From a virus: DNA of 64,000 nt. The notes below the pieces were generated by a model. The model did not search any database and was not told the origin of the DNA. It worked only from the letters and a program-made list of their open reading frames with translations. The first letter of the stretch is position 1, and every line of letters starts with the position of its first letter. The DNA lies in IMG/VR virus record IMGVR_UViG_3300040801_004114; one strand, 5' to 3'. Below, piece after piece: positions 6,379 through 48,379 of the stretch. A program made the position numbers and the translations under genes.

Positions 6379-6777
6379 ATGAAAGAGTTAGATGTATTCT
6401 TAACAAAAGTATTATCAGATAAATATGCAGATTTAGATGATACATTCGAAAGAAGAGACTATTTCGAGTTAGAAAAAGAAAATCCAGATTTTTTAAAAGG
6501 AACGAGCGATTCGTATGGAATATCTTATTTAATAGATGTTGGTGATGTCATTCACATAAAAGTTAACCTTTATAAAGATCTAAGTGTTTCCTTAGAAACT
6601 GTTTATGATAATTCTGATATCATCAGAAAAACGATTTTTACTAATATTGAAACACATATAAACGAATTCATAAGGTTAAATGATATATTTATATCTTTGG
6701 AAAGACAGGTTGATAGCTTCATTACTGAGGATAAAAACTACATGAGAAGATTAAAGATTGATCAGATACAAGGTTAG
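6379..6777 (+). CDS. Hypothetical protein (C-terminal RxxK tail)
   Basis: 132 aa, ends RRLKIDQIQG; TATATTTG at 6358. Confidence 0.7.
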   Translation: MKELDVFLTKVLSDKYADLDDTFERRDYFELEKENPDFLKGTSDSYGISYLIDVGDVIHIKVNLYKDLSVSLETVYDNSDIIRKTIFTNIETHINEFIRLNDIFISLERQVDSFITEDKNYMRRLKIDQIQG

Positions 6778-7031
6778 TAATTATTTCTTATATTTTCTAA
6801 CCTTTTGAATTCCTCATCCCATTGTTCTAGTGTTAAACCGTTGATGCTTATGTTATTAAGCTTATCTCTACCATCACCATCCCAATAAATTGATAAATCT
6901 CTTGTGCTACCCATTTCTCCAAGAGAATGCATTTCTAACATTAGCTTTATTAACTTCTCAACTGAATCCTCTGAACATGTAAATGAAATGTTATTTTCAC
7001 AGTCCATTTTAGGTGTCTCGTATTTTTTCAT
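6774..7031 (-). CDS. Hypothetical phage protein
   Basis: 85 aa, LGEMGSTR...WDGDG motif. Confidence 0.65.
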   Translation of the reverse strand: MKKYETPKMDCENNISFTCSEDSVEKLIKLMLEMHSLGEMGSTRDLSIYWDGDGRDKLNNISINGLTLEQWDEEFKRLENIRNNY

Positions 7032-7038
7032 AAGTGTT

Positions 7039-7197
7039 TTATTTTTTTAAATTAGACTTTAATTTATGGTAATCTTCACAAGCATTTAACAACGCATCGT
7101 AATAGTAATCTATTATCCCATCATCATTCACACCACAAATATTAGCTGTCGTTCTTCTTAGTTCCTTTTTAAATTCTTTTAAGTCTTTATATATCAT
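7039..7197 (-). CDS. Small hypothetical protein (52 aa, below ORF-track cutoff)
   Basis: Manual translation MIYKDLKEFKKELRR...KSNLKK; fills the gap in the minus-strand operon. Confidence 0.55.
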   Translation of the reverse strand: MIYKDLKEFKKELRRTTANICGVNDDGIIDYYYDALLNACEDYHKLKSNLKK

Positions 7198-7226
7198 ACA
7201 CGTTATATGATAATAAAAATAAAAGT

Positions 7227-7406
7227 TTATTCATGGATCACCCAATAACCACCTGATAGTTCATATACTTTGTTTTCGTAGAATAAAAAGGGGAATTTTC
7301 TATTCAAAGTCCATTCACGCCTAAAATAAATATCACCTTCCTTACCTAATATTTTATCGCCCTCTTTGTTAATAAATTTAAATTTATTTTTTTTAAACCT
7401 TTTCAT
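7227..7406 (-). CDS. Small hypothetical protein (59 aa)
   Basis: Manual translation MKRFKKNKFKF...GGYWVIHE; TATTTTTG at 7421-7428 upstream. Confidence 0.55.
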   Translation of the reverse strand: MKRFKKNKFKFINKEGDKILGKEGDIYFRREWTLNRKFPFLFYENKVYELSGGYWVIHE

Positions 7407-7477
7407 ATTATTTTTTTTTGCAAAAATAGTAAATTAATAATAAATTAATGTATATTTGCCTTTTAAATTTAAAAATT

Positions 7478-7687
7478 ATGATGTATACTATTAAAGATAA
7501 AGATGGATTTTTTGTATCAAGAGACAATGATGACAGTAAAAAATTATTCTATGGGGATTTAGACCACAATAGGCTACTCTCTAAATCTGAAGTGGGTGTT
7601 ATCCAAGAAAGGTTCAAAGGAACTTGGAGAAGACGAGAATTTAAAGTATATGAGGTAAATCTAACTTTAACAGAAGCAAGCCTGTAA
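7478..7687 (+). CDS. Hypothetical protein
   Basis: ORF 7448..7687; start moved to ATG 7478 because 7451-7458 is a promoter-like element. Confidence 0.6.
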   Translation: MMYTIKDKDGFFVSRDNDDSKKLFYGDLDHNRLLSKSEVGVIQERFKGTWRRREFKVYEVNLTLTEASL

Positions 7688-7690
7688 TTA

Positions 7691-8821: not shown

Positions 8822-8824
8822 ATT

Positions 8825-8835
8825 GTATATATTAA
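8825..8835 (-). promoter_or_regulatory. Putative phage late promoter TTAATATATA(C)
   Basis: 3 nt upstream of ATG 8821. Confidence 0.6.
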
Positions 8836-8845
8836 ATATATTCCT

Positions 8846-8853
8846 TATATTTG
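8846..8853 (+). promoter_or_regulatory. Bacteroidota sigma -7 element TAnnTTTG
   Basis: TATATTTG upstream of 8869. Confidence 0.6.
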
Positions 8854-10037: not shown

Positions 10038-10307
10038 ATGAGTTCTAAAAGAGTAGAAAATTATCGTGGTGATATTAAATGGGTAAATGAGGATGGTGAG
10101 CTACATAGGCTAGATGGTCCTGCTTATATATCAAGCGATGGAAAAGATAAAGAATGGTGGGTTAATGGATTCCCACATAGGTTAGATGGTCCTGCTTTGG
10201 AATGGGATTCATCAGACACCAAACAATATTATATTGAAGGTGAAAAGGTTAAGGAAGAAAATTTTCTGGAATTATCTAGAAAAAAGAAACTTAAAGATAT
10301 CCTTTAA
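10038..10307 (+). CDS. LHRxDGPA-repeat protein
   Basis: Two HRLDGPA units with W spacers; ends RKKKLKDIL. Confidence 0.8.
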   Translation: MSSKRVENYRGDIKWVNEDGELHRLDGPAYISSDGKDKEWWVNGFPHRLDGPALEWDSSDTKQYYIEGEKVKEENFLELSRKKKLKDIL

Positions 10308-13999: not shown

Positions 14000-14401
14000 A
14001 TGATAGTTGAGAAAACAGTTTCTAAAGATGGAACTAAAAGATGGAGATTAATGAATGGTAAATTACATAGAGAAGATGGTCCTGCCGTGATTTACGAAGA
14101 TGGAACTAGAAAATGGTACAGGCAAGGTGTTCTTCATAGAGAAGATGGTCCTGCAATAATGGAGAGAAATGGATCACAGGCTTGGTATAACAAAGGAAAA
14201 TTACACCGAGAAGGCGGTCCTGCTATACACACATCTAATGGAAATAAGATTTGGTACGTAAATGGTGTAAAACACAGGATAAGCGGTCCTGCTGAACTTT
14301 TACTAGGTGGTATTAAAAAATACTGGTTAGAAGGTAAACCGATAGATAAACAAAGATTCAGATCTATATCCAGAAAATACAAAATAGAAAATTGTATATA
14401 A
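14000..14401 (+). CDS. LHRxDGPA-repeat protein
   Basis: Four HR[E/I]xGPA units about 22 aa apart; ends RKYKIENCI. Confidence 0.8.
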   Translation: MIVEKTVSKDGTKRWRLMNGKLHREDGPAVIYEDGTRKWYRQGVLHREDGPAIMERNGSQAWYNKGKLHREGGPAIHTSNGNKIWYVNGVKHRISGPAELLLGGIKKYWLEGKPIDKQRFRSISRKYKIENCI

Positions 14402-15579: not shown

Positions 15580-15732
15580 TTATGTGGTCTTATAGATTTT
15601 ACTAATTTTACATTCTTCTAGCTTCTGTTCATAACTATCAGTTATCTTACCAATAGTATACCCAAATAAAAGTGAGTATAACACCATAGTAAAGGCTACA
15701 ATGAGTAACGTTTTTCTGTCAGATTTTTTCAT
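15580..15732 (-). CDS. Small single-TM protein (50 aa)
   Basis: Manual translation MKKSDRKTLLIVAFTMVLYSLLFGYTIG... Confidence 0.55.
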   Translation of the reverse strand: MKKSDRKTLLIVAFTMVLYSLLFGYTIGKITDSYEQKLEECKISKIYKTT

Positions 15733-18795: not shown

Positions 18796-19135
18796 TTAAT
18801 TTGTCTTTTATGTAGTTACCGAATGTATCTTGAACTAGGATAGCTTCTTTTACACTTAGATTATGTGAACCTGTTCCAGTTAAGTTTCCCCAACCCCTTA
18901 TTAATATTAAATTATTTTTTTCACCATCGATTATATATCCATCCTCATATACAAATGGTGTACTACCTTTTTGTGTATATGCTTCACCATTTAACAAGCC
19001 TATTATCTTTTTACATAACTTTGTGTGTTCAATTGTAAATTGAAACACAAAATTATCATTCGAATCCCACACCCATCCGATGCTATCATCTAACCGTAAA
19101 GGTAATTTATAAATGTCTTTCCAATCTTTTATCAT
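18782..19135 (-). CDS. Hypothetical phage protein
   Basis: 117 aa; LILIRGWGNLTGTG. Confidence 0.7.
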   Translation of the reverse strand: MIKDWKDIYKLPLRLDDSIGWVWDSNDNFVFQFTIEHTKLCKKIIGLLNGEAYTQKGSTPFVYEDGYIIDGEKNNLILIRGWGNLTGTGSHNLSVKEAILVQDTFGNYIKDKLNGNK

Positions 19136-19278
19136 AGTTTATCATTTAAATCTTTCAATATTTCACTAGTTTTATAATATCTAAGTTTTTTCTTAATTCG
19201 ATAGGATATTTCTTCCCTCCAATCCTCATAACTCATTATATTAGCTAATTGATATATTTCTTTTAATGTGTTTCTCAT
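19132..19278 (-). CDS. Small hypothetical protein (48 aa)
   Basis: Manual translation MRNTLKEIY...KKLRYYKTSEILKDLNDKL; ATGA-type overlaps on both sides. Confidence 0.6.
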   Translation of the reverse strand: MRNTLKEIYQLANIMSYEDWREEISYRIKKKLRYYKTSEILKDLNDKL

Positions 19279-20111: not shown

Positions 20112-20318
20112 ATGGATGTAATTGATACCGATGATAATGTTTATATAATGTTTCTTTTTGATAAACAAAAAAATAAACCTAATGCATATAAAGATGTAAA
20201 TGAGTTTAAAGAAGATGAAAGTGCAGTATTTGATTTGCATGAAGAGTACTACGAAGATTGGTGGCAAGTTATGGATAGGTGTAGAAAAATTGAAAATATT
20301 TTTAAAATAAAAAAATAA
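20112..20318 (+). CDS. Hypothetical protein (C-terminal RxxK-like tail)
   Basis: Ends DRCRKIENIFKIKK; TACTTTTG at 20088. Confidence 0.6.
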   Translation: MDVIDTDDNVYIMFLFDKQKNKPNAYKDVNEFKEDESAVFDLHEEYYEDWWQVMDRCRKIENIFKIKK

Positions 20319-22503: not shown

Positions 22504-22661
22504 AAAATAATACTTACATATTATTATCCATCTTATCATTTTTAATGGTAGTGATATCTTATTTTTTAATTGAAGATTTCAATAATGAATATAATGTTTT
22601 TACAACTAGTATTTTACTAGCTTTTTCTTTAGTGTCATTTTTAAAATATATCGAAAAATGA
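22500..22661 (+). CDS. Small two-TM protein (53 aa)
   Basis: Manual translation; ATGA overlaps with both neighbours. Confidence 0.55.
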   Translation: MKNNTYILLSILSFLMVVISYFLIEDFNNEYNVFTTSILLAFSLVSFLKYIEK

Positions 22662-22879
22662 AAGAAGGCGATATTTTAGTATGTACAAAAGAGTTCGAAG
22701 GATTTCCTAACATTTCCTACAAGAAAAAATATAAGTATTTGGAAAAAATTGAAATTAATAATAGAATATTATATCTAGTAGAAGATTTAAGAACAAACCT
22801 TCCGCTATATGGTTTTAAATACCAGTTTATAACTCTGAGAGCTTACAGAGATTTTAAATTAAAACAAATTGAAAATTAA
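22658..22879 (+). CDS. Hypothetical protein (C-terminal RxxKL tail)
   Basis: Ends RAYRDFKLKQIEN. Confidence 0.7.
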   Translation: MKEGDILVCTKEFEGFPNISYKKKYKYLEKIEINNRILYLVEDLRTNLPLYGFKYQFITLRAYRDFKLKQIEN

Positions 22880-23087
22880 TGATATAATAGGTATGCCTAA
22901 TATAAATTATCTTTCTAAAAAAGGTTTCAAGGATGATAGACATTATTTATCTAATCAGAAATTATTTATACTAGATACTTTTTGTGAAAAGGCGGGAATA
23001 TCATATGATGATATTGAAGAACATGATGTAAATTGGCTAAAGAATAAAATAAGACAATATAAATTAAAAACATTAGAAAATGAATAA
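22869..23087 (+). CDS. W-x-K-x-KIRQ family paralog 1
   Basis: Ends DVNWLKNKIRQYKLKTLENE. Confidence 0.7.
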   Translation: MKINDIIGMPNINYLSKKGFKDDRHYLSNQKLFILDTFCEKAGISYDDIEEHDVNWLKNKIRQYKLKTLENE

Positions 23088-23280
23088 AGTGCATAAATAC
23101 GACATGATGTTTGATTTTGGGGATAGAAGAAAAGACAATTCTTATGAAAATGAAAAATTATTGTTAGAAGAAATGAAAAAGCTTATTGGTGTTGATGATA
23201 ACGATCTAATGATTAAAAATGAGGGTTGGATCAAAAACAAAATAAGGCAATATAAATTAAACATTATAGAAAATGGATAA
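23080..23280 (+). CDS. W-x-K-x-KIRQ family paralog 2
   Basis: Ends NEGWIKNKIRQYKLNIIENG. Confidence 0.75.
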   Translation: MNKVHKYDMMFDFGDRRKDNSYENEKLLLEEMKKLIGVDDNDLMIKNEGWIKNKIRQYKLNIIENG

Positions 23281-23533
23281 AGATAATAGTGAAATTACAG
23301 GATATAATTCATGGGGTCTAAATAAAGAATTCTATGATTATTTGAGAAATAATTTAGATGAAATTGTAGAAAAAAAGGGTGTTGATAATACACATAACAA
23401 TGAAAAATTTCTATCTGATCAGTTCAAAGACCTATTGAAAATATCTGACGAAGATATGAGAGATAAGGATAAGGATTGGCTTAAAAGTAAAATAAGACAG
23501 TTCAAAATTGATATTATGTGTAATGGGGCATAA
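23273..23533 (+). CDS. W-x-K-x-KIRQ family paralog 3
   Basis: Ends DKDWLKSKIRQFKIDIMCNGA. Confidence 0.75.
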   Translation: MDKDNSEITGYNSWGLNKEFYDYLRNNLDEIVEKKGVDNTHNNEKFLSDQFKDLLKISDEDMRDKDKDWLKSKIRQFKIDIMCNGA

Positions 23534-23945
23534 TACATATACCAACATAAACATAGATAATTGGGATACTAGCAATGTTACTAACATAAAACATATGTTT
23601 TATGGGAGTAGTAAATTAAATCACAATGAAACATATATCCTTTTAAAAATATTACCTATTTTAGATTTAGATCATGATGATTTAAAATATAAGAGTACAG
23701 AATACATAAAAAGTAAAATTGATAAATTAAAAAATATGGCTTGGAACAGAGATGGTAGAATAACTTCTAGTTTAAAAAAAGACGTTTCAAACTCAGGTAT
23801 AGGAATATATGCAAAGAACAGAGATTATTTACAAGGCGAAATGTTAAATCTGTTAGATATATCTAAAGAAGATATGTGGAATAGAGACGAAGCATGGATA
23901 AAGGGTAAAATAAGAAATTTAAAATTAAAAATACTAGATAAATAA
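23523..23945 (+). CDS. W-x-K-x-KIRQ family paralog 4 (two modules plus one DUF285-like repeat)
   Basis: WDTSNVTNIKHMF; internal EYIKSKIDKLK; terminal DEAWIKGKIRNLKLKILDK; ATG 23523 follows the neighbours' overlap pattern. Confidence 0.7.
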   Translation: MGHNTYTNINIDNWDTSNVTNIKHMFYGSSKLNHNETYILLKILPILDLDHDDLKYKSTEYIKSKIDKLKNMAWNRDGRITSSLKKDVSNSGIGIYAKNRDYLQGEMLNLLDISKEDMWNRDEAWIKGKIRNLKLKILDK

Positions 23946-24223
23946 TGAAAAGAACTGTAATAGTAAATTGCCAAGTCTATAAGAAAAATACACCAGATCA
24001 AAAGTTTCCAAAATTAGAAACTACTGGTAAGGAATTCAGGATTGAACTTGATGAAGCTTTATTAGATGATGAGCCTAAAGTTAAAACAGTCTTGTCTGAA
24101 ATGGTTAGAGAGAAAAGTTCTGATATGTTCAGGTGTGAATATTTTAACCATGTTGTTCAAGACTATACAATAGAAAAATTAGGGAGTCAAAGAGACTTCA
24201 TTAACTTAAAAAATACCTTATGA
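23945..24223 (+). CDS. Hypothetical protein
   Basis: 92 aa, coupled to the Prs-like gene by a 4-nt overlap. Confidence 0.7.
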   Translation: MKRTVIVNCQVYKKNTPDQKFPKLETTGKEFRIELDEALLDDEPKVKTVLSEMVREKSSDMFRCEYFNHVVQDYTIEKLGSQRDFINLKNTL

Positions 24224-25098: not shown

Positions 25099-25114
25099 TC
25101 TAAAAACAAAAAAT

Positions 25115-25366
25115 ATGAGTGGTAGTTGGTGTGGTAATGGTAACTCATTAGGTAATTTCAGTAATATTCATGGAGGAATGGGTATTGACACTTCTATAAT
25201 TAGAGATCGTAAAGAACTAGATAAACATGATAACAATAAAGATTATTTATTGAAACAATTGATGCCTATGTTGGACATATCTGACGAGGAATTAAAAGAA
25301 AAAGATGAAGATTGGATAAAATCTAAAATAAGACAATTTAAAATAAAAATGATAAATGGACAATAA
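25115..25366 (+). CDS. W-x-K-x-KIRQ family paralog 5
   Basis: Ends DEDWIKSKIRQFKIKMINGQ. Confidence 0.75.
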   Translation: MSGSWCGNGNSLGNFSNIHGGMGIDTSIIRDRKELDKHDNNKDYLLKQLMPMLDISDEELKEKDEDWIKSKIRQFKIKMINGQ

Positions 25367-25706
25367 AAGAAAAATAGTGTTTATATCTTCACCCTATTCA
25401 AATCCTGATATAGGAATCCGTGAAGAAAATTTTGCACTTGTTTCCCAATATGTTGCAGAGCTTAATTCAAAAGGAATTGTTGCATTATCACCTATAACAT
25501 ATGGACACACACTTCTAAATTTTAAAGAAATGCCTGGTGATTGGGAGTTTTGGAAAGAATTTTGCATAACTTTTTTAGAAAAGTGTGAAGAAATGATAGT
25601 TTACAAAATACCTGGTTGGAACAAATCCAGAGGTGTTAAAGAAGAAATTGAAATAGCCAAAGAGCTTGGCTTAAAAATAACATATAAAAAACCTATACAA
25701 TTATGA
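25356..25706 (+). CDS. DUF1937/nucleoside 2-deoxyribosyltransferase-like protein
   Basis: FISSPYS, SPITYGH, W...C...LEKC, GWNKSRGVKEEIEIA (G-x3-E catalytic pattern). Confidence 0.75.
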   Translation: MDNKRKIVFISSPYSNPDIGIREENFALVSQYVAELNSKGIVALSPITYGHTLLNFKEMPGDWEFWKEFCITFLEKCEEMIVYKIPGWNKSRGVKEEIEIAKELGLKITYKKPIQL

Positions 25707-27967: not shown

Positions 27968-28515
27968 TTATCCATAAAAATGATCTGTATAGAACATTTA
28001 AATTATATGATAAAAGCATTAATTTAAAAATATTTCATATTTTATACTATGTTCACGCTGTAATTATAATGATTGTTAGCTCTGTGGCTTATGATGAAAG
28101 CATGTATTCTTTTATAGGTCTTTTTTCTTTTTCTTTAATACTCATATTATCAATGCTAGGACTTACTTATTATTATCAAATGTATAAAAAAGGTAAGCTT
28201 AAATTTGATTATTCATTGTATCATTTGCCAGAAAATGGTGATAGGATGATTTGTACTGAAAGTTTTTATTATAGAGCAATAAGTAATAAAATATATTCCA
28301 TAAACACAAAAAAATACATTGATAGGTATATCATAGAAGTAGAAAAGGGCGAAGAATTAATAGTTGAATCTCGTGAATTCTATGAGGGTAAGATTTTCAT
28401 ATCATTATTATACAATAACAAAAGAGTAATATTAGATGATTATGTAGACAATATGAAATATATTAAAAGTAAAAAATTAATAAGACTAGAAAAACTTAAA
28501 AAAATGAACATATGA
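27964..28515 (+). CDS. Two-TM membrane protein with C-terminal RxxKL tail
   Basis: Two hydrophobic helices; ends IRLEKLKKMNI. Confidence 0.7.
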   Translation: MIIHKNDLYRTFKLYDKSINLKIFHILYYVHAVIIMIVSSVAYDESMYSFIGLFSFSLILILSMLGLTYYYQMYKKGKLKFDYSLYHLPENGDRMICTESFYYRAISNKIYSINTKKYIDRYIIEVEKGEELIVESREFYEGKIFISLLYNNKRVILDDYVDNMKYIKSKKLIRLEKLKKMNI

Positions 28516-29204: not shown

Positions 29205-29942
29205 ATGCAAAAAACAGATTTTGAAAAGTTCGCTATTAGCGAGGGAGTGCCATCAAGTAGACTTGATTATTACAACAAACAAGTTACCTCTAGTATGACT
29301 CCTTATATTCTTGAAGAAAGGGAAATGAGGGTAACACAAATGGACATTTTTAGCAGAATGTTAAGGGATAGAATTTTGTGGGTCACAGGAGAAGTAAACG
29401 ACTCAATGTCCTCAGTGGTTATGGCACAATTAATGTTTCTTGACAACCAAGAGAAAAAAGATATTAAAATGCACGTTGATAGCCCAGGTGGATCAGTTAA
29501 GAGTGGGTTATCCATGGTAGATGTGATGGAATATGTAAATTCTGATATAGTCACAATTAATACAGGTATGGCTGCATCTATGGGATCTATTCTTTTATCA
29601 TCTGGTACAAAAGGGAAAAGATTTTCCTTGCCTTTTTCTAAAGTAATGACACATATGGTGTCTCATGGAACTAGTGGTAATGTGCAAGATACTAGAATTG
29701 GTCAGATTGAGGCAGAAAAGTACAACTTCGTTCTATTTAAAATCCTAGCACAAAATTGTGGAAAGACGCTAGAAGAAATGTTAGAAACTTCAAGAGTTGA
29801 CAACTGGTTAAATTCTAGCGAAGCTTTACGTTTTGGTATCATTGACGAGATAATCGGGGGTGATGTTAGAGACATGGATAAAATGATGGAAGGTTTTGAT
29901 GAGTACTACATGGAAGAGGTCATCAAAAGGAATAAAAAATAA
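29205..29942 (+). CDS. clpP: ATP-dependent Clp protease proteolytic subunit (Bacteroidota-type N-terminus)
   Basis: TPYILEER...MDIFSR, DSPGGSV, GMAASMGS (Ser), VMTH (His), VDNW (Asp). Confidence 0.93.
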   Translation: MQKTDFEKFAISEGVPSSRLDYYNKQVTSSMTPYILEEREMRVTQMDIFSRMLRDRILWVTGEVNDSMSSVVMAQLMFLDNQEKKDIKMHVDSPGGSVKSGLSMVDVMEYVNSDIVTINTGMAASMGSILLSSGTKGKRFSLPFSKVMTHMVSHGTSGNVQDTRIGQIEAEKYNFVLFKILAQNCGKTLEEMLETSRVDNWLNSSEALRFGIIDEIIGGDVRDMDKMMEGFDEYYMEEVIKRNKK

Positions 29943-30007: not shown

Positions 30008-31096
30008 ATGAGCGATTGGAAAGTTAGTAAACAAAAAATAGAGTTGTTCAACCACTCTAATGCTGATTCATTAGAATTGGGAAAAGTAGGTTCATACCAA
30101 GTCGTAGTTCAAAAGGGACTATATAAAAACGGTGATGAAGTTGTTTTTGCGCCTGAAAAATCAATATTATCAGGCAAAATAAGAGAAGAATTTGAAAATT
30201 ATCTAGTTGGTCCTGATAAGAATAGAGTCAAGGCTGTTAGGTTGAGAGGTGAATTTTCTTCTGGCATAATCATTCCTACGCATTTAGTAGGCGATCTTGA
30301 TGATTATGAATTAGGTGTTGATATATCAGATAAATTAGGCATTGAAAAATATGTTCCACCAATCCCTACACAACTAAGAGGATCTGTGAAGCCATTTGAA
30401 ATGGACAAATTAGGTAGCCATGACTGTGAACAGGTTGGTGTCTATCTAAACCAACTTATTCAAGGTGAAAGAGTTGTTATAACAGAAAAAGTGCATGGGT
30501 CACAGTTTATACTTGCTCATGATATAGATAATGAAGATACTATAGTTTCATCTAAGGGTATGTTTAAAAAAGGTCTGTGTATCGACTTTGATCCTAACAA
30601 CTCATATTGGGCAGCTTCTATGAATGATTCAATTGTTGATAAGATTAAATCTAACTTTAAAAGCGGAGTTGTTCAAATCTTTGGAGAAGTAGTACCTGTG
30701 CAAGGTGGTTATAGCTATGGCAGAGAAAAGCCTAATGTTTTGGTATTTGATGTAAGACATGATGGGGTTTCGATTCCTTATGACAAATGTCCACAAGATT
30801 TCTTAGATATTTGGGTCCCTGTTGTATTTGATGGTGAACTTAAAATGGATGAAAAAGTAGAAGATATCTATCGAGATGATGAAAAGGGCATTCATAAAAC
30901 CAAAACTATATATAGTCTACCCAAAGAAATAATTAAAATGTCTAAGGGTAAAGAGCTAGTATCGGGTAAAGGGCTACACATCAAAGAAGGTGTTGTTATA
31001 AGACCTTATATAGATAGAAGAGCAAATGATGGTAAACCACTTAGGTTGAAAGTTATAAACCCTGCTTACAAAGAAACTGGTGAAGAAATAAGCTAA
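30008..31096 (+). CDS. RNA ligase (DRB0094-like, N-terminal OB/tRNA-binding region)
   Basis: HSNADSLEL, RVKAVRLRGEFSSG, motif I TEKVHGS, FGE, FD, EGVV, KVINPAY. Confidence 0.85.
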   Translation: MSDWKVSKQKIELFNHSNADSLELGKVGSYQVVVQKGLYKNGDEVVFAPEKSILSGKIREEFENYLVGPDKNRVKAVRLRGEFSSGIIIPTHLVGDLDDYELGVDISDKLGIEKYVPPIPTQLRGSVKPFEMDKLGSHDCEQVGVYLNQLIQGERVVITEKVHGSQFILAHDIDNEDTIVSSKGMFKKGLCIDFDPNNSYWAASMNDSIVDKIKSNFKSGVVQIFGEVVPVQGGYSYGREKPNVLVFDVRHDGVSIPYDKCPQDFLDIWVPVVFDGELKMDEKVEDIYRDDEKGIHKTKTIYSLPKEIIKMSKGKELVSGKGLHIKEGVVIRPYIDRRANDGKPLRLKVINPAYKETGEEIS

Positions 31097-31107: not shown

Positions 31108-31620
31108 ATGAGTAATAAAATATGGGTAGTTAAGAAAAATAAGTATTCTAAGAAGCTTCAAACTTTCAAGGATGAGGATAGTTTGATACTTTTTTTAGAA
31201 AATCTATCTAACCATGGCTTTTTATCTGAAGCACGCATAACTACATATAGTTATGAATCAGAATATACTGGTGAAAATTTTTTAAAAAATAAAGAAAGAC
31301 AGTATAAGCTTAAGAATGTAATGGGGGATTTAAATGAGGAAGAGAAAAATATAAAGGACTTAATGGATTACATTGAGGAAAATAATTTAGATAATAAAAG
31401 GATTTATAAAAAAATGAAATCATTATTTAAATATCCTGAAAAATTTAAATCTTTTTTGATGACTAATAAAGTTAAGATTTTTAACATTAGTAGTGATCAA
31501 GAATTTATTTTTTTACTCTTAAAGGTTCATAACTTTAGAAGTTTAGATAGTTATAACAACAACTCACCAACCTATAGGGATTCTTTTAGAAAGGCTAAAA
31601 AGAAAATAAAAAAAGTATAA
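31108..31620 (+). CDS. Hypothetical protein
   Basis: 170 aa; internal KERQYKLKNVM resembles the RxxKL motif. Confidence 0.7.
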   Translation: MSNKIWVVKKNKYSKKLQTFKDEDSLILFLENLSNHGFLSEARITTYSYESEYTGENFLKNKERQYKLKNVMGDLNEEEKNIKDLMDYIEENNLDNKRIYKKMKSLFKYPEKFKSFLMTNKVKIFNISSDQEFIFLLLKVHNFRSLDSYNNNSPTYRDSFRKAKKKIKKV

Positions 31621-31644: not shown

Positions 31645-32268
31645 ATGAAAATTAAATCAACTACATTAGAACTATTTAAATATAATGATACTGCTGTATC
31701 CTTTGACCTATTGACACTTTTATTATATGTGTTTATAGACTTTCCTACGGCTACAGCACTTATAATTTCTATTTTTTTACATGAAGCATCACACGCATTT
31801 ATAGCTATTAAACTAGAAAAGAAAGTGAGCAAAATACATGTTGGGCTATTTGCTGGATATGCTAATATAAAAACCAATATGAATCCGAGGGAAGATCTTT
31901 TTGTTTCGCTAGCAGGTCCTGCTTCTAATTTTATTGCATCAGTACTTTTTTTCATTATTTCTATTTTCTTTATAGACACTTCTTTCGGGGAATTCTTGAT
32001 AATACTAAGCTTTGTCAATTTTCTGTTGTGTATTTTTAATATCTTTCCTATATTACCTATGGATGGTGGACATGTATTAAAAGATATTCTTATAATTAAA
32101 AATAAGAAAAATTATTTAAGGACAACATATAAAGTATCTCTCATTACATCAATAGTATTATTTCTTACATTCATGACAATTGGGTTTTATGTGGTGAGTA
32201 TACTATACTTACTCTCAGGTATCTTATCATACACTAAACTTGATAATATGAAAAGCGAAGATTCTTAA
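31645..32268 (+). CDS. Site-2 protease (M50 family) intramembrane metalloprotease
   Basis: HEASH in TM1, AGP, NIFPILPMDGG. Confidence 0.88.
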   Translation: MKIKSTTLELFKYNDTAVSFDLLTLLLYVFIDFPTATALIISIFLHEASHAFIAIKLEKKVSKIHVGLFAGYANIKTNMNPREDLFVSLAGPASNFIASVLFFIISIFFIDTSFGEFLIILSFVNFLLCIFNIFPILPMDGGHVLKDILIIKNKKNYLRTTYKVSLITSIVLFLTFMTIGFYVVSILYLLSGILSYTKLDNMKSEDS

Positions 32269-35088: not shown

Positions 35089-35421
35089 ATGTCAATATCA
35101 GAACACATTAATTCACTTATACAAGAGATGAAAATTCCTTTTAGAAAATACAAATGGGGACATTTCATAATTAGAAATTTCATAGATTTAAGAAGAATGC
35201 CAGACCTTAGTTCTGCTTCACCAATAAAAAGCACTGTTATAGTATATAGGTATAGATATTGTCCTAAATACAAAAGATTAGAAAGAGCTTTTATGGGTAG
35301 TAAAAATTATGTACTTCGAAATTTAGAAGCAGAAAAAAGTTTAGATGATGAAATATCATGTAACATCAATAAGATTGACAAGTCATATAATAGATTGGAA
35401 AAAATAAATAAAGCTATATAG
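35089..35421 (+). CDS. Hypothetical protein (C-terminal RxxK tail)
   Basis: 110 aa, ends RLEKINKAI. Confidence 0.55.
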   Translation: MSISEHINSLIQEMKIPFRKYKWGHFIIRNFIDLRRMPDLSSASPIKSTVIVYRYRYCPKYKRLERAFMGSKNYVLRNLEAEKSLDDEISCNINKIDKSYNRLEKINKAI

Positions 35422-39396: not shown

Positions 39397-42354
39397 ATGA
39401 AAACTAAAATTTTATTTATCTTATTATTAATGTCAAAAATGACATTGTTATCACAAGAAAACACTTGTGATATAATCATTTCTAGTATCGATGATTTATC
39501 AGAGCTAGGTAATGTAGACAACTCAACAATATGTTTTGATGGTGTTGTGTTTGATGCATATGAACTAACCAATAAACAATTTGGTGAAAATGTCACATTA
39601 AGAATAAATTCTAATTCTGTTGTTAGAACTAGAAATTTATCTTTTGGCAATAACTTAGCTATTATAAATGATGGTACTTTTGTATACGATGGTGGAACAT
39701 CTATAAATTTACCATCTGGATCTAAAGTTACCAATTTGGGAACTATGTCTATTATATTAAATTTAAATGGTGGTCAAATTATAAACAGTGGAGAATTTTC
39801 ACTAATCAAATATAGCAATTTAAACAGTGGTAGTATACTCAATGAAAGTGGTGTATTAACCTTAGATTCAAATGGGAATACAATTGGTAACAATATTAAT
39901 ATTATATCAGACGGTAATATAGTATTAAATAATGCCTATTCAAATAATGGCTACATTGAGGTTAATGGGAATTCTACATTTAATAGCAAATTCACTAATA
40001 ATAATGAATTTATAACATCGGGTGATGTTTTATTTAAAGGTGATTTTGTCTCTAATAGCAACTCTTCGATATCTACCTTCGAAAAATTCTTTGAGTCCCA
40101 AGGTGATGTAATTCTATATAATGGACAAATAATTGCAGGTAATGGTTTCTCATCTAAGGATTTACTAATGGAAAATCAATCATTAATACAATTTGGTGGT
40201 GACATAGAGGTTGATGAATTAACCTTAAGAGGTGTTTTAGAATCAATCGGTGGTTGTAATCAAATAATTTATGATAACATAACTAATGGCTTTGGTGGAA
40301 CATTGGAAGCTGAAAGTCCAAACTCTATATTGATAAACGACTTCCCTAGAAATTGGACAGTGATTGGAAATGTTGGTGAGACATGCTTATCTAATGAAAG
40401 TTGTGTTGTTTACTGGAATGGTGAGCAATCGTCTGATATAAATAATAAAAAAAATTGGACTAATAACAGTGGGAATTCTCATTTGAATAATGGTAATTGT
40501 ATCTTGGTTATTCCTGATTCAAACGATGTTGATAACAATCCTATTTTTTCGGGATTATCTAGATTCAAGTCACTTGTGGTTGGACAAGGTGGTGAAGCTA
40601 ATATCACAGGAGTTATAGATGTTAATGGTTTTGTTGATAATAAAGGAATCATTAACGGTGAACAGGGCGAAGTATTCACGGACTCATTTATAACAATATA
40701 TGGAGATGGAATTTTAAATATAGGTGATATAACTGGGTCTGGATTTGAATTGAATTCTGGTAACGTTAATTTGTATAATTCTTTAAGTGTGTCAACTGAA
40801 TCAAATGTAATAAATGGTACTTTTACTTTTAAATCTAATGAAACCAATACAGCTTTTATTTCAGATGATTCTAATTCGTTAATTGGTAAAGTAACTACTG
40901 AAAGGTATATACCAGATTCGAACAGGGCTTTCAGATATATAAACTCATCTGTTGACACGCACGAAAGCATCAGGGATAATTTACAAGAGGGTGTAAATAA
41001 CACAGTTAATAATTATGCTAATAACAAAAATCCTAACCCAGGTTTTGGAACTCATATAACAGGATCTAAAAGCGGATCTAATGGCTTTGATGCATCACTT
41101 ACTGGTAACCCATCTATGTTTCTTTGGGACAATATAAATAACGAATGGGGAGATGTAGACAACACAGATGTTGATAAATTAAGGGTAGACACAGCATTTT
41201 CTCTACTTATAAGAGGTGATCGAAGTACTAACATTTATGTAAGTAATGATACATATGAGGGTGTCACAACTTTGAGAATGACAGGGGATTTAAGAAATAA
41301 TGATTTAGATGTTTCAAACAAACTAAATGATGGTGTGAATTCATTTTCATTCATAGGCAATCCATTTCAGAGTAAAGTAGATGTGAGACCCTTGTTGAAT
41401 GAATCAAACGGTGTTAAGAAAACACATTATTATGCTTACTCACCACAACTTCAAGATTTAGGTGCATATATAACTGTTTCTATTGATGACTCGGGAAATG
41501 TTGAGACAACGCCCCAAATGCCAAATCAAGATGATTATAAGTTTATACAAATACATCAAGCTATATTTATAGAGAATACAAGTGATGATGAGCCTAGAAA
41601 CCTTACATTTAAAAATGAATATAGAAGTAATGGGAGTGGTATAAACAATGAGGTTTTTAGTTTAAATGAACCTGATGAACAGATTATTGTTAATTTACTC
41701 TCTAAGGAAACAGGTAAATTAATAGATGGTATTCGTGTTAAATTCAATGATAATTATTCCAACGATGTTAATGATAGTGATTTGACTAAGCTTTGGAATA
41801 GACAAGAAAGTATGTCCACATATAAAGACGAAAACTGGATAAGTGTTGATAAAAGAAATTTATTAGATGAATTAACTGAAGTAGAATTATATACTGGTTT
41901 ATATGATGGTATTCAATATGAGTTTTTAATAGACGTAGATATCAGAGAAGGCAATGATGTTATTCTATTGGATACATATACAGGGGATGAGCATTATTTA
42001 AATAGCGGTGAGAATAAAATAACTTTCGACTCTAATGGTGGGACGGATGCTTACAGGTTTAAATTTATTATTGAGGAATCTGAAACATTATCTGATGATT
42101 CTTTCGAATTGTCGGAAGATGTAGTAATGTATCCTAATCCAGTTACTAGCAATTACACATATATAAAAATGAATGATGTAAATAATGCCAGTGTTCATGT
42201 ATATGATATGAATGGGAACTTACTAAATGTGGGTGTTAATAAAACATCTAATAATGAGCTAAGATTGTCTACTAATACTTTGAGTTCTGGTATATATTTA
42301 GTAAAGATCATATCAAATGGTATCTCAACTACAAAGAAGTTAGTAGTTAGGTGA
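39397..42354 (+). CDS. T9SS type-A C-terminal sorting domain protein (large secreted surface protein)
   Basis: Signal peptide MKTKILFILLLMSKMTLLS-Q; Asn/Gly-rich beta-helix-like N-half; TERYIP, GTHITG..G.NGFDA, LLIRGDRS; CTD VVMYPNPV...VYDMNG...LSSGIYLVKI...TKKLVVR. Confidence 0.9.
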   Translation: MKTKILFILLLMSKMTLLSQENTCDIIISSIDDLSELGNVDNSTICFDGVVFDAYELTNKQFGENVTLRINSNSVVRTRNLSFGNNLAIINDGTFVYDGGTSINLPSGSKVTNLGTMSIILNLNGGQIINSGEFSLIKYSNLNSGSILNESGVLTLDSNGNTIGNNINIISDGNIVLNNAYSNNGYIEVNGNSTFNSKFTNNNEFITSGDVLFKGDFVSNSNSSISTFEKFFESQGDVILYNGQIIAGNGFSSKDLLMENQSLIQFGGDIEVDELTLRGVLESIGGCNQIIYDNITNGFGGTLEAESPNSILINDFPRNWTVIGNVGETCLSNESCVVYWNGEQSSDINNKKNWTNNSGNSHLNNGNCILVIPDSNDVDNNPIFSGLSRFKSLVVGQGGEANITGVIDVNGFVDNKGIINGEQGEVFTDSFITIYGDGILNIGDITGSGFELNSGNVNLYNSLSVSTESNVINGTFTFKSNETNTAFISDDSNSLIGKVTTERYIPDSNRAFRYINSSVDTHESIRDNLQEGVNNTVNNYANNKNPNPGFGTHITGSKSGSNGFDASLTGNPSMFLWDNINNEWGDVDNTDVDKLRVDTAFSLLIRGDRSTNIYVSNDTYEGVTTLRMTGDLRNNDLDVSNKLNDGVNSFSFIGNPFQSKVDVRPLLNESNGVKKTHYYAYSPQLQDLGAYITVSIDDSGNVETTPQMPNQDDYKFIQIHQAIFIENTSDDEPRNLTFKNEYRSNGSGINNEVFSLNEPDEQIIVNLLSKETGKLIDGIRVKFNDNYSNDVNDSDLTKLWNRQESMSTYKDENWISVDKRNLLDELTEVELYTGLYDGIQYEFLIDVDIREGNDVILLDTYTGDEHYLNSGENKITFDSNGGTDAYRFKFIIEESETLSDDSFELSEDVVMYPNPVTSNYTYIKMNDVNNASVHVYDMNGNLLNVGVNKTSNNELRLSTNTLSSGIYLVKIISNGISTTKKLVVR

Positions 42355-45287: not shown

Positions 45288-45289
45288 TT

Positions 45290-45808
45290 ATGAAATACTT
45301 AAAAAAATATAATAAATTCTTTGAAGATGGCGATGGTGGTGGGAGTACTGGTTCTGGGGATGCTACGGCTAATGCATCCACTTCTGGTATGGGTGCAGTA
45401 GTATCTGCTCAACCAGGTGCGTTACCAGGTGATACTGGTACGTCAGGATCAGGTGATATTGGTTTTACTTTCAAGAAGAAAAAAAGAAAGAAAGGCGATC
45501 CTTCAGAAGTGTCTGACATGAGAGACTTAGAAGATTCTAGTGATGAGATAACTAAATTAGATGAAAACTATTCTGAGCAGGATGTTTTTAATGAAGTGTT
45601 AGACCATTTGAAGTCCAGAAATTTATCACCTAATATGATTAAACAAATAATGGGTAGTTATACAGATATGATTATAGAAATGTATAATGAGGGAATAAAT
45701 ACAACTCAAATAATAAAAAAAGTTATATCTCTATTAGGACATGAGAGTGAAAAAACATTTTTAGGGATACTTCCACCAACTACACCTAAACCTATATCCT
45801 TTCTATGA
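45290..45808 (+). CDS. Gly/Ser-rich protein with capsid-targeting-like N-terminus (internal head protein candidate)
   Basis: MKYLKKYNKFFE, low-complexity GDGGGSTGSG..., KKKKRKK patch. Confidence 0.75.
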   Translation: MKYLKKYNKFFEDGDGGGSTGSGDATANASTSGMGAVVSAQPGALPGDTGTSGSGDIGFTFKKKKRKKGDPSEVSDMRDLEDSSDEITKLDENYSEQDVFNEVLDHLKSRNLSPNMIKQIMGSYTDMIIEMYNEGINTTQIIKKVISLLGHESEKTFLGILPPTTPKPISFL

Positions 45809-46408
45809 TAACACTTTTTTTAGTTTACGAGATCTCTCAATAGAAATATTTGTATATTTTGGCAACGTCATGATATCATATATAGATTTTATATTATTAT
45901 TGTAAAGTGCATCCTTAACATCATATCTATAAGTTTCATTTTTGTTAATACTTCTTAAATACCTACCAAATATAATGTAGTCTATATCATCTTTCACTAT
46001 TTTAGATCTCAAATTTAGATTAACTGCTTTATAAAATACTTTATCTATGTTATAATTTCCCTCTATTATTGAAATTAATAACACCATAAAACTCACAAAT
46101 GACAATAATGCGAGTAATATAATAGATACTACTTCTCCATCAACTATCTTTTCCAAAGTTAAACTACCGTTTTCAGAAAGGGTCTGCTTTTGGTCAAAAT
46201 AATATATTTTTTTCGTTTCAGTTACATAATAATACTGGTCATTGTGTACAAAATCATTTATAACTTTCTGTTGATAATTTACTTTATCGAAGCCTATTGC
46301 GAAGTACATAGTTAATAAAATAATATTAAAGATATATAAAGACATTTTTAGTTTATTAAGAGCCATAAACATCCATATATAGCTAAAAAAATACTTGATT
46401 AAAATCAT
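45803..46408 (-). CDS. Two-TM membrane protein, paralog of 46405..46995
   Basis: IDYIIFGRY, DIMTLPK, ends RSRKLKKVLS. Confidence 0.7.
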   Translation of the reverse strand: MILIKYFFSYIWMFMALNKLKMSLYIFNIILLTMYFAIGFDKVNYQQKVINDFVHNDQYYYVTETKKIYYFDQKQTLSENGSLTLEKIVDGEVVSIILLALLSFVSFMVLLISIIEGNYNIDKVFYKAVNLNLRSKIVKDDIDYIIFGRYLRSINKNETYRYDVKDALYNNNIKSIYDIMTLPKYTNISIERSRKLKKVLS

Positions 46409-46995
46409 ATATCTAATTTTTTTAGTTTATTAATTCTATCCTTTTTCACGGTGTAGTGTTTGGGCAAAGAGGTTATATCAGAGAGTGTTCGTATATTACC
46501 AACAATATCGTATTTATGTAATATTTTATTGGCATCATTAGATCTTCTTATAAACCTATCGAATAATAAGTAATCTATACCATCTTTATCCATTTCGGAA
46601 TGTGTGAGAGTCCAAACAGTATCACGCAGTGGGTCTGTAAAATCTATTTCATTACTTTCACCAAATATGTATATTAATAGCCCAAGTAGTAAAGTTATAA
46701 ATGATGCCCATAATAGAATATTAATCCCTGAGTATGATGAATATTCTATTTGCTTATCAACTATAGGTATTTCTTTTGATTCAGTTTTTAATTGTAATTC
46801 TTCACCATCATCTAATACATAGTAATAATTACCACTTACTTCACCACTATGTATAACCTCCTTTATGTATTTATCATCCTCAAACTCCCCTGCGTAACAA
46901 AATGATAATATACATAAGAAAGAAAATATCACAAATCCTATATTATGGGCTATGAAATTGATGATGTATAGAGGTATTATTTTAAGATACAGCAT
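46405..46995 (-). CDS. Membrane protein, paralog of 45803..46408
   Basis: IDYLLFDRF, DITSLPK, ends RINKLKKLDI; ATG at 46995 lies downstream of TATATTTG 47008-47015. Confidence 0.7.
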   Translation of the reverse strand: MLYLKIIPLYIINFIAHNIGFVIFSFLCILSFCYAGEFEDDKYIKEVIHSGEVSGNYYYVLDDGEELQLKTESKEIPIVDKQIEYSSYSGINILLWASFITLLLGLLIYIFGESNEIDFTDPLRDTVWTLTHSEMDKDGIDYLLFDRFIRRSNDANKILHKYDIVGNIRTLSDITSLPKHYTVKKDRINKLKKLDI

Positions 46996-47007
46996 AATTT
47001 TTTTATG

Positions 47008-47015
47008 CAAATATA
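47008..47015 (-). promoter_or_regulatory. Bacteroidota sigma -7 element TAnnTTTG
   Basis: TATATTTG upstream of 46995. Confidence 0.6.
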
Positions 47016-47030
47016 ATATAAATATCTATA

Positions 47031-47984
47031 TTATTCACTATAATTAAAAACTTTTAATCTATTTAACCACCCTCTTCCGTGTTTTGAGAATGTTTTTGAT
47101 GCTTTATACCTTTTTTCTCTTTCTTTTTTTATGTTATCAAACAGTTGCTTAGAATCAACTTCATTTACGAAATCCATAAATTTATCATCATATGGATTTT
47201 CGTCTTTTCTAATAGGAATCCCAGAAGAATTGAAAGCCTTTCTTAAAACTTTTCTCATCCCATTTATACCTTGGTTAACACATCCATCGTATATTATATT
47301 AGCCACTGACTGGTTATTTATCTTTCCTAAATTTTGATTCTCCCAATATTTTTTTTTGTAAATATCTAAAGCAGTTTCATAACTTAAATTGATCATATCT
47401 TCTTTAGTAGGAAGTTTACTCATGTAATCCATAAGAACAGGTGCTGATATACCATGGTTAGTACCAATAAACCTCTTTCCATAAGGTGTTGATACGAAAT
47501 TACCCCTGTCTTTTCTATCATCTGAATATCCTTTTTCAACACTCTTTACTAAACTTTGAGCATCTAAAAAAGATGCTTTAGTAACTGGTGCTTTAGTAAC
47601 TGTTAAATCTTCTAGGTTTTTAATAGCCTCTAGTGTCTCAGGTGGTATCTCACTGCTTATGACATCATTATCAACTTTGTCATTTGGGAAATAGTAATCA
47701 AATGGTGCGAATAATAGAAACACAGCAGATGCTGACAATAAAATTCTCTTTTTATTTTTATTCTTCATATCTCCTAGTTTACTTAGGAGCTTATAGAAGT
47801 ATTTCTTAATTTGTTTTTTAGACATAGTTTTTAATAGTTTTTTGAGTCTAGATGTTTTTTTCATATCCCAGTGGTATGTATTATCACCTATCCACTCCCC
47901 TTTGTCTTCTAATATAGAATTATCAAAATTAAATATTTGATTAAATTCTTTTTCTAATAAAAAATCATTATATTTGCTAATCAT
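47031..47984 (-). CDS. GH108-like muramidase with peptidoglycan-binding C-terminus and capsid-targeting-like leader
   Basis: EKGYSDD..DRGN...TNHGIS, YKKKYW, D..VNQG, GWLNRL; leader MISKYNDFLLE. Confidence 0.85.
   Translation of the reverse strand: MISKYNDFLLEKEFNQIFNFDNSILEDKGEWIGDNTYHWDMKKTSRLKKLLKTMSKKQIKKYFYKLLSKLGDMKNKNKKRILLSASAVFLLFAPFDYYFPNDKVDNDVISSEIPPETLEAIKNLEDLTVTKAPVTKASFLDAQSLVKSVEKGYSDDRKDRGNFVSTPYGKRFIGTNHGISAPVLMDYMSKLPTKEDMINLSYETALDIYKKKYWENQNLGKINNQSVANIIYDGCVNQGINGMRKVLRKAFNSSGIPIRKDENPYDDKFMDFVNEVDSKQLFDNIKKEREKRYKASKTFSKHGRGWLNRLKVFNYSE
47969..47976 (+). promoter_or_regulatory. Bacteroidota sigma -7 element inside the divergent GH108 coding start
   Basis: TATATTTG upstream of 47999. 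Confidence 0.5.
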
Positions 47985-47987
47985 AAT

Positions 47988-47998
47988 GTATATATTAA
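47988..47998 (-). promoter_or_regulatory. Putative phage late promoter TTAATATATA(C)
   Basis: 3 nt upstream of ATG 47984. Confidence 0.6.
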
Positions 47999-48379
47999 AT
48001 GGAAAAAATATTATTAGAGAATATCGAAGATATATTTAAAACACTTGGTATTAAAGCAAAAAGTAACTCACCTTTAATGGTAATTAAAAGCAACGAATGT
48101 GCTAAGAATGTACCAACCCAATACATATCTCGTAGACCTTTTGGCAGAATTGATTTGTCTATTTTTATTCCAAAGAGAGATTACTATATACATGAGGATA
48201 GAAAGCATTTAGTGAACCTAAAACTCATGGGTTATAATACGAATATTGATATAGATTTTGAACTTACTTTTAAATCATTAAAAGGATTATCAGTGATAGA
48301 CAATGGTATTTTTTTCACCGAATATGAAAAAAATGCTTTGAAAAATAAAATAAGAAAAATTAAACTAAATCAAATTTAA
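47999..48379 (+). CDS. Hypothetical protein (KNKIRKIKL tail)
   Basis: Ends ALKNKIRKIKLNQI. Confidence 0.7.
   Translation: MEKILLENIEDIFKTLGIKAKSNSPLMVIKSNECAKNVPTQYISRRPFGRIDLSIFIPKRDYYIHEDRKHLVNLKLMGYNTNIDIDFELTFKSLKGLSVIDNGIFFTEYEKNALKNKIRKIKLNQI

Follow-up and report, generated by a model that had tools for sequence, protein, structure and literature searches.

Why should proteins that share nothing else end in nearly the same short, basic peptide? The question is raised by a 64,000-nucleotide (nt) stretch of viral DNA from IMG/VR record IMGVR_UViG_3300040801_004114 (this whole stretch being called the window), which is phage DNA of 28-29 % GC and part of a 65.6-kb contig, and in which a recurrent C-terminal tail, with an arginine, a lysine three residues later and two spaced hydrophobic residues thereafter, had been noticed on a series of mostly small proteins. 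This tail motif is real, selected as amino acids, modular, C-terminal, kept in homologues and found in non-late transcription units. With moderate confidence, it is read here as a clade-specific, transplantable C-terminal α-helix of about 13 residues that would act as a docking tag read by one shared partner; that it is helical in all of its carriers, that it docks and that it has a single reader are inferred.

A preliminary description of the window, made from its letters, had listed about 15 such endings, and all of the tails that it quoted are found at the genes named. For counting, open reading frames (ORFs) were taken from a simple greedy call, giving 114 ORFs that cover 93 % of the window, and the strict pattern was set as R..K[LI]..[ILMV], with its end no more than five residues from the C-terminus. 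Thirteen of the 114 ORFs carry this pattern at the C-terminus, as compared with 6 matches in 18,398 internal positions (Fisher p = 3e-15). The tails in the window are richer in lysine and leucine than the protein bodies; however, when the last 30 or the last 13 residues are shuffled, the mean falls to 0.20 or 0.40 matches, with a maximum of 3-4 in 5000 shuffles. Hence, the proposed excess over what an AT-rich, Lys/Ile/Leu-rich genome would yield is borne out, and composition alone, which the preliminary description had named as the explanation that would undo its claim, falls far short of the 13 tails observed. Because the strict pattern was chosen post hoc, a position matrix was trained solely on the tails of two relatives, namely LR745206.1, an uncultured huge phage of 634,780 bp that is the nearest public relative by protein, and G003, a 476,236-bp IMG/VR genome with a CheckV completeness of 97 %. 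At a cut-off of at least 6 bits, this matrix finds 16 C-terminal matches and one internal match (in 31108; genes of the window are named by their lower coordinate) where 0.34 are expected, and its list is near-identical to the earlier one, missing 46405 and gaining a weak candidate at 15580-15732. The tail quoted for 19132, on the minus strand, is present and yet weak, with a threonine at the [LI] position and nine residues beyond the motif. Overall, the C-terminal motif is stronger than was first reported.

The distribution of the tail among related phages marks it as a property of a clade. A megablast of the window against a phage collection gave no close or near-identical DNA record. By BLAST, LR745206.1 has homologues of 27 of the 114 window ORFs, with identities of 67 % for the RNA ligase (30008-31096), 67 % for ClpP and 69 % for one structural protein. 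An alignment of the RNA ligase retrieved five further IMG/VR relatives at 62-70 % identity, G003 among them, and a related-locus search with the lysozyme as query retrieved nothing. With a Gp20-type portal and a gp19-type tail tube, these phages are T4-like myoviruses. In the whole genome of LR745206.1, the strict tail is on 98 of 935 ORFs (10.5 %), and in that of G003 it is on 74 of 637 (11.6 %), including 21 of the 46 genes within the last 16 kb. Other relatives (L019-L023 and L052-L055; eight stretches scored, with the matrix at 8 bits or more) have 2-6 matches per 8-37 genes. In contrast, five control stretches, consisting of 50 kb each of LR756501.1 and LR756508.1 plus three IMG/VR contigs whose ligase is only 34 % identical, have 0-1 tails per 25-83 genes. 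The motif, then, belongs to the clade, some 10 % of the proteome bearing it. It is also kept as its carriers diverge. Homologues shared by G003 and LR745206.1 have a median identity of 57 %, and in all 28 cases in which a G003 carrier has its homologue in LR745206.1 (27-65 % identity) the latter's tail is motif-like, being strict in 20 and, in the other eight, showing a K-to-R change at the lysine position (+3, counting from the arginine as 0), another change at a pattern position or a longer offset from the end. For the carriers of the window, the best LR745206.1 match of 22658 (38 % identity) ends in REWKLRKILD, and 27964 has tailed homologues in G003, L022 and a Logan contig; a word-based homologue search with 27964 returned one homologue, with the tail retained, while that with 25115 returned only itself. 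An LR745206.1 gene at 98040-98438, which ends in RDYKIKEIL, adjoins the homologue of 48393, the gene neighbouring 47999. Degenerate versions occur too, as in the LR745206.1 homologue of 46405 (RENFLNKIGIK) and in a family of paralogues, designated family A, whose LR745206.1 tails are degenerate.

The proteins that bear the tail are, for the most part, small ORFans with nothing else in common. Once the tail has been removed, the 114 carriers of the window and LR745206.1 fall into 108 BLAST clusters at E < 1e-3. A single paralogous family is rejected as an explanation by this count, similarity outside the motif being confined to family A (22893, 23080, 23273, 23523 with two modules, and 25115, which share some 45-50 C-terminal residues), to the repeat proteins 10038 and 14000 and to the membrane proteins 45803 and 46405. 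Thus, the preliminary description's "about 15 otherwise unrelated" carriers holds for many of the bodies but not for these three groups, and judging from the sequences the window has about 9-10 independent carrier families. Pfam searches of the window carriers gave nothing above cut-off save a DUF285 fragment in 23523, and the 20 largest LR745206.1 carriers gave nothing significant, with three weak, sub-threshold matches. The repeat proteins 10038-10307 and 14000-14401 are built from W-x-x-G-x-L-H-R-x-D-G-P-A units, for which no Pfam model reached threshold and which have what we take to be a MORN-like look. Transmembrane-like segments are in 8 of the 114 carriers and in 68 of the 935 LR745206.1 genes, i.e. 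there is no excess among carriers, and a look-alike search in the ESM Atlas with a 581-residue carrier and with 47999 gave no usable lead.

What is conserved is the peptide and not the DNA beneath it. Leu and Ile codons differ among the tails of the window, and the choice of synonymous codons at each motif position of the LR745206.1 tails tracks genome-wide usage; e.g. the 98 motif arginines are encoded by AGA in 72 cases, AGG in 12 and CGN in 14, with background fractions of 0.77, 0.12 and 0.11. Moreover, a degenerate DNA version of the pattern, sought in the last 63 nt of genes, occurs in frames 0, 1 and 2 at counts of 13:0:0 in the window, 122:6:7 in LR745206.1 and 84:3:1 in G003. With codon usage at background and the pattern restricted almost wholly to frame 0, selection acts on the motif as protein, and a DNA-level element at gene 3' ends, whether an integron attC-like site, a promoter or a coupling signal, is not supported. 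Furthermore, a role in signalling a downstream start is precluded by carriers such as 6379, 35089 and 45803, which end where two genes converge. The influence of the DNA reaches no further than the last one or two residues, in that the ending "GI-stop" is mostly encoded by ATA-TGA, in which the following gene's ATG is embedded; 29 endings have ATA-TGA.

The genes that encode tailed proteins also share a transcriptional setting. Two classes of promoter-like element are seen in the window, G003 and LR745206.1, the first being TAnnTTTG, located about 20-50 nt before the starts of units of small genes, and the second being TTAATATATA/TATATA, located about 10-25 nt before the starts of structural and many enzyme genes. 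When the window's genes are sorted by unit, carriers make up 11 of the 36 genes in TAnnTTTG units and 2 of the 18 in mixed ones, and TATATA-only units (36 genes) and units lacking both elements (24 genes) include no carrier (Fisher p = 4e-4). The association with TAnnTTTG that had been claimed earlier is therefore confirmed, 13 of the 13 strict carriers being in units with that element upstream. In the relatives, TAnnTTTG precedes 38 % of carrier units versus 18 % of others in G003 and 34 % versus 17 % in LR745206.1, and the late-type TTAATATATA precedes 1 of 39 carrier units versus 69 of 256 others in G003 and 7 of 79 versus 74 of 324 in LR745206.1. Given this enrichment of TAnnTTTG and depletion of TTAATATATA, the carriers count as non-late, a timing that speaks against virion packaging; a virion or capsid cargo address was rejected on these counts and on the absence of window carriers from TATATA-only units.

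The 98 aligned tails of LR745206.1 reveal more than the search pattern put in. The consensus reads [KIL]-[SQE]-x-[IL]-R-[DEN]-x-K-[IL]-x-x-[IL]-[LGI], with 1-3 residues more before the end, and the positions conserved beyond the search pattern are -4 (K/I/L), -3 (S/Q/E), -1 (I/L), +1 (D/E/N; 1.4 bit), +5 (N/K/D) and +8 (L/G/I; 1.55 bit). Upstream of -4 there is no conservation, implying a linear motif of 13-14 residues and not the end of some larger shared domain. Beyond +7, two residues are the commonest number (47 of 98 tails in LR745206.1; 42 of 74 in G003) within a range of 0 to 8, and the endings ...[IL]-L-[KN] and ...L-G-I interchange between homologues. When the tail is drawn as a helical wheel, conserved positions run from 260 through 0 to 100 degrees and variable ones occupy 140-240 degrees, with Arg0 (0 degrees) and Lys+3 (300 degrees) centred in the stripe that the hydrophobic positions -4, -1, +4, +7 and +8 form. 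Several resemblances to known elements were considered and set aside. Mimicry of the IGF loop by ...LGI was rejected, since homologues freely exchange LGI and ILK and the terminal Ile comes in most cases from the ATA of an ATA-TGA start overlap; a resemblance to SAP/HeH/Rho_N domains and to helix I of J-domains (KDYYxxLGV) is one residue out of register; and the C-terminal helix of ClpP (YGLIDxIL) has only the low-information IDxIL in common with the tail.

Family A is the one group in which the tail belongs to a recognizable larger module. This module, N-x-x-Y-L-L...L-G-I-[ST]-x-E-D-L...W-I-K-x-K-I-R-x-x-K-I-x-x-I, is C-terminal in 22893, 23080, 23273, 23523 and 25115, and a profile of it found 41 cluster representatives among 1.84 billion proteins, nearly all of 56-143 residues and with the module at the extreme C-terminus. 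An AlphaFold 2 (AF2) model of 25115 has a disordered N-terminus and helices at 38-53, 57-62 and 65-80, the last being the tail, with a pLDDT (per-residue model confidence) of 74-88 by 10-residue block. Foldseek gave no PDB match for the family-A model, and VIA gave only helix-loop-helix neighbours at noise level (Z <= 3.8), i.e. no convincing structural neighbour. As to gene context, family-A mini-genes are directly upstream of or inside an NAD-salvage block (Pribosyltran, DUF1937 and NAPRTase-family genes) at 24220-27274 of the window, at L053:873-3692 and at L055:10001-12680, and this proximity thus extends beyond the window to contigs of unrelated samples; L055 has a Zeta_toxin/AAA_33-like kinase in place of the first two genes. 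In a 9.3-kb Logan contig (L052:4305-5973), an IS200/IS605-type pair, i.e. a Y1 transposase plus OrfB/TnpB, adjoins an array of family-A paralogues.

The case for docking on a common partner is built from the one-face conservation of the putative helix, the two basic residues within its hydrophobic stripe, the roughly one hundred unrelated bodies that bear it and its retention as those bodies diverge. Under this reading, the conserved face of the helix would plug into an acidic-hydrophobic groove of one shared reader, leaving the opposite face free, and the shared tag would allow the phage to manage a large number of unrelated early proteins collectively. As candidate readers, the proteostasis machines of the clade come to mind first, i.e. 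Hsp70 and an unfoldase of the ClpC type together with ClpP. The preliminary description had likewise proposed a docking motif, and this interpretation stands insofar as the tail is short, modular, selected at the protein level, probably helical, present on unrelated bodies and clade-wide; however, nothing ties the tail to ClpP or ClpC in particular, and the roles suggested earlier, as a degron, a membrane address or a compartment-import signal, are conjectural. Four points weigh against the docking-tag reading. In the AF2 model of family A, the tail helix packs on the protein's own upstream helix, and so, in that family at least, the tail may be partly structural. Outside family A, helicity is indicated by residue periodicity and by one low-confidence, single-sequence model. 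The version of the tail in the window is more degenerate than that of its relatives, having Q/K at +1 and no conservation at +8. Finally, carriers unusually often have an overlapping start codon after them, making a role in translation possible.

The rival that survives best, although it is unlikely, has the tail as a degron or an adaptor tether that is read by host ClpX or by a phage ClpC-type unfoldase together with ClpP, such that early proteins would be cleared on schedule or would deliver host targets. The window's ClpP is genuine (PF00574), and the complete relatives encode Hsp70, two J-domain proteins, a ClpC that lacks the N-domain, ClpP (two in LR745206.1), an M42 aminopeptidase and an M16 peptidase. 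The ClpC orthologue of G003 and LR745206.1 has no N-domain and keeps the M-domain and the VGF loop by which ClpP is docked. Hsp70, ClpC, ClpP, M42 and M16 are in the top tier of conservation between these genomes, at 84-87 % identity versus the median of 57 %, the unfoldase being 85 % and ClpP 84 % identical. At L017:851-2154 (LR745206.1 122918-124089), the second ClpP gene is followed after 5 nt, on the same strand, by the gene for a 210-residue carrier (...LRDYKIQKIME). The non-late timing of the carriers would also suit a degron, and the C-terminus of MuA, CILEQNRRKKAI, which constitutes the transplantable ClpX degron C-motif-2 (PMC12723719), is matched in register by L-E-x-x-R-x-x-K-hydrophobic. 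On the other hand, conservation along one face of a helix fits docking better than the threading of an unstructured degron into a pore, the 0-8 residues beyond the motif put the free carboxylate at no fixed distance, and Hsp70 and a Clp-type ATPase also occur in two huge phages of which 50 kb each was sampled, with no tail in the one and a single tail in the other. A complex prediction of G003 ClpC (710 residues) with one 42-residue carrier scored 0.00 and has no bearing on binding either way.

A second possibility, which is improbable, is that the tails pair with one another as homo- or heterotypic helices, so that carriers oligomerize or co-assemble and no separate reader exists. The basic residues at 0 and +3 beside a conserved acidic residue (D/E) at +1 could be self-complementary, and the family-A model is a helix-loop-helix hairpin whose weak neighbours (Z 3-3.8) include dimerizing helix-loop-helix domains. 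However, 13 residues are few for a stable coiled coil, the acidic +1 is missing from the variant in the window, and the structural matches are at noise level. Decidedly improbable is a more elaborate scheme that would combine docking with degradation, in which the tail would make the hundred or so fast-evolving ORFan early proteins of each genome into interchangeable adaptors, their bodies gripping host proteins and their helix tethering them to the N-domain-less ClpC and ClpP, with M16 and M42 finishing the job, i.e. a modular system of targeted degradation that would recycle the host proteome into amino acids for a giant virion.

Two further explanations concern the ribosome and the membrane. 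In the first, the tail acts as a nascent chain within the ribosome at termination, favouring re-initiation on the overlapping gene in a host group that lacks Shine-Dalgarno pairing. This would account for the preferred distance from motif to stop, with its peak at two residues after +7, as well as for the coupling of carriers to their neighbours, given that a start lies within 5 nt after 54-66 % of carriers versus 34-37 % of other small genes and that an ATG is in the last 8 nt of 76 of 172 carriers (44 %) versus 217 of 1400 other genes (16 %). It is nonetheless very improbable; 15-23 % of carriers are at convergent ends and 8-14 % have a distant downstream gene, most coupled junctions are tail-less (130 versus 48 with a tail in G003), the distance to the stop ranges over 0-8 residues, the motif also occurs internally (in 31108 and in the first of the two modules of 23523), and the excess of coupling may merely reflect dense arrays of carriers. 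In the second, which is highly implausible, the tail is an amphipathic membrane-targeting helix like those of MinD and FtsA, by which early proteins would be held at the inner membrane. Though it is short, basic-hydrophobic and C-terminal, and though a few carriers (27964, 45803 and 46405) are membrane proteins, Arg0 and Lys+3 are centred in the hydrophobic arc (260-80 degrees) and not at its edges, specific polar positions (+1 D/E/N and -3 S/Q/E) are conserved, and carriers are no richer than other genes in transmembrane-like segments. That the tail is an artefact of Lys/Ile/Leu-rich composition, hidden paralogy or a DNA element at gene 3' ends (promoter, coupling signal or cassette recombination site) is scarcely credible, for while the genome is AT-rich, its C-termini are rich in K and L, part of the carriers are paralogous and the ATG of the next gene shapes the last one or two residues, the shuffles, the frame-specificity with background codon usage, the 108 body clusters and the near-absence of the tail from controls of similar composition all speak against it.

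The positions of the tails in the window, with their endings and matrix scores where available, are collected in Table 1 together with those of ClpP and of the proteostasis genes of G003.

Table 1. Tail motifs of the window and associated proteostasis genes
Feature	Coordinates	Strand	Remarks
Tail, 132-residue ORFan 6379-6777	6733..6777	+	...YMRRLKIDQIQG-stop; 6.8 bits; convergent gene end
Tail, 89-residue repeat protein 10038-10307	10266..10307	+	...LSRKKKLKDIL-stop; 19.5 bits; paralogue of 14000
Tail, 133-residue repeat protein 14000-14401	14360..14401	+	...ISRKYKIENCI-stop; relaxed (C at last hydrophobic position); 7.0 bits
Doubtful weak tail, 48-residue ORF 19132-19278	19132..19194	-	LRYYKTSEIL then 8 residues; 6.5 bits
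Tail, 68-residue ORF 20112-20318	20265..20318	+	...DRCRKIENIFKIKK-stop; L019 homologue keeps variant
Tail, 73-residue ORF 22658-22879	22835..22879	+	...YRDFKLKQIEN-stop; 14.1 bits
Tail helix (predicted), family-A mini-protein 22893-23087	23040..23087	+	...KIRQYKLKTLENE-stop
Tail helix (predicted), family-A mini-protein 23080-23280	23233..23280	+	...KIRQYKLNIIENG-stop
Tail helix (predicted), family-A mini-protein 23273-23533	23483..23533	+	...KIRQFKIDIMCNGA-stop
Tail helix (predicted), 23523-23945	23901..23945	+	...KIRNLKLKILDK-stop; DUF285-like N-terminus and second, internal family-A module
Tail helix (predicted), family-A mini-protein 25115-25366	25319..25366	+	...KIRQFKIKMINGQ-stop; within NAD-salvage operon
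Tail, 183-residue membrane protein 27964-28515	28471..28515	+	...IRLEKLKKMNI-stop; kept in homologues
Internal motif copy, 170-residue protein 31108-31620	31285..31326	+	KNKERQYKLKNVMG; 11.2 bits; 99 residues from end
Tail, 110-residue ORF 35089-35421	35380..35421	+	...NRLEKINKAI-stop; relaxed; 10.6 bits; convergent end; TATATA-type unit
Tail, 201-residue membrane protein 45803-46408	45803..45847	-	...ERSRKLKKVLS-stop; 17.5 bits; convergent end
Tail, 196-residue membrane protein 46405-46995	46405..46449	-	...DRINKLKKLDI-stop; paralogue of 45803
Tail, 126-residue ORF 47999-48379	48341..48379	+	...KIRKIKLNQI-stop; 19.1 bits
ClpP (context; candidate reader component)	29205..29942	+	PF00574, 180 bits; 67 % identical to LR745206.1 ClpP
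Proteostasis set in G003	L044:8736-10619, L042:4643-6775, L050:754-1512, L039:4446-5516, L037:5477-6586		

The remainder of the window offers a clue to the host. A 985-residue protein (39397-42354, plus strand) has a terminal PF18962 domain (type IX secretion C-terminal sorting; 47.9 bits) and is a phage-encoded substrate of the type IX secretion system, making it the best such clue. In view of this sorting-domain protein and of the TAnnTTTG element that heads many units, the latter being the -7 element of Bacteroidota promoters, the host of the clade's phages, whose genomes are of 0.5-0.6 Mb, is probably a member of the Bacteroidota. The window also encodes, at 31645-32268 on the plus strand, a 207-residue M50 (site-2 protease-like) peptidase that has no PDZ domain and whose LR745206.1 homologue is 37 % identical.

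When set beside systems already described, the tail has partial counterparts in several. Like MuA C-motif-2, it is a short, basic-hydrophobic, C-terminal and transplantable peptide, and the L-E-x-x-R-x-x-K-hydrophobic run aligns to tail positions -4 to +4; however, MuA (RRKKAI-COOH) stops two residues after its lysine, whereas the phage tail runs for 5-8 more with two conserved hydrophobic residues, has helical periodicity and sits on about 10 % of a proteome. A second parallel is with adaptors. The tether of SspB is a C-terminal XB peptide that docks on the N-domain of ClpX, and the ankyrin-PRANC/F-box proteins of poxviruses are viral adaptors with a constant C-terminal module. Carriers are laid out on the same plan, with a body that varies and a short C-terminal docking element that stays constant and enters one machine, but the sequence is another, no flexible linker is evident, and the N-domain to which classical adaptors bind is missing from the clade's ClpC.

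Sliding clamps provide a third comparison, their terminal peptide ligands including those of T4 gp43, gp33 and gp55 on gp45, the bacterial QL[SD]LF motif and the PIP box. These are likewise short terminal motifs on the unrelated clients of a hub, and the spacing of the tail from +1 to +8, [DENQ]-x-x-[LI]-x-x-hydrophobic-hydrophobic, is PIP-box-like; in contrast, an invariant Arg and Lys are foreign to them, and carriers are ORFan early proteins and not replication proteins. A clamp-binding peptide was rejected as the identity of the tail, as the clade's family-B DNA polymerase (PolB) has no tail (the G003 PolB ORFs end in ...IKQLEAEI and ...KKININTTA) and carriers have no recognizable replication domains. 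For a clamp gene, the DnaN and PCNA_N models gave no match, and the gp45 model was silent in control genomes too and is hence uninformative. In G003, a 324-residue protein (91898-92872; L032) ends in ...NLNKLNNIDFL, much like the acidic-hydrophobic tails of T4 gp43, gp33 and gp55, and going by that ending the clade may have a separate clamp-binding motif (...NNIDFL). The G003 family-B polymerase itself (84859-89001; L032) is in two ORFs of 508 and 555 residues with two small, opposite-strand ORFs between them, and an intervening mobile element may be the cause of this split.

Lastly, the capsid targeting sequence of T4, the cargo-loading peptides of encapsulins and the encapsulation helices of microcompartments are transplantable terminal peptides whose cargo is made late with the shell. 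Such cargo-address peptides resemble the tail in being short, transplantable and terminal, in some cases helical, and in sending unrelated cargo to one shell protein, but the phage carriers differ in being non-late, with units depleted of TTAATATATA and enriched in host-type elements. Shared terminal peptides that are read by a hub are therefore a known principle, as degrons, clamp-binding tails and cargo-loading peptides attest. What appears to be new is a tag on about 10 % of a viral proteome that is borne almost only by proteins of no known function, no phage C-terminal tag of such form having been found described in the literature searched. If there is indeed a single reader, its discovery would afford one experimental handle on the approximately one hundred "dark matter" early proteins of each genome, with a portable 13-residue tag as a by-product.

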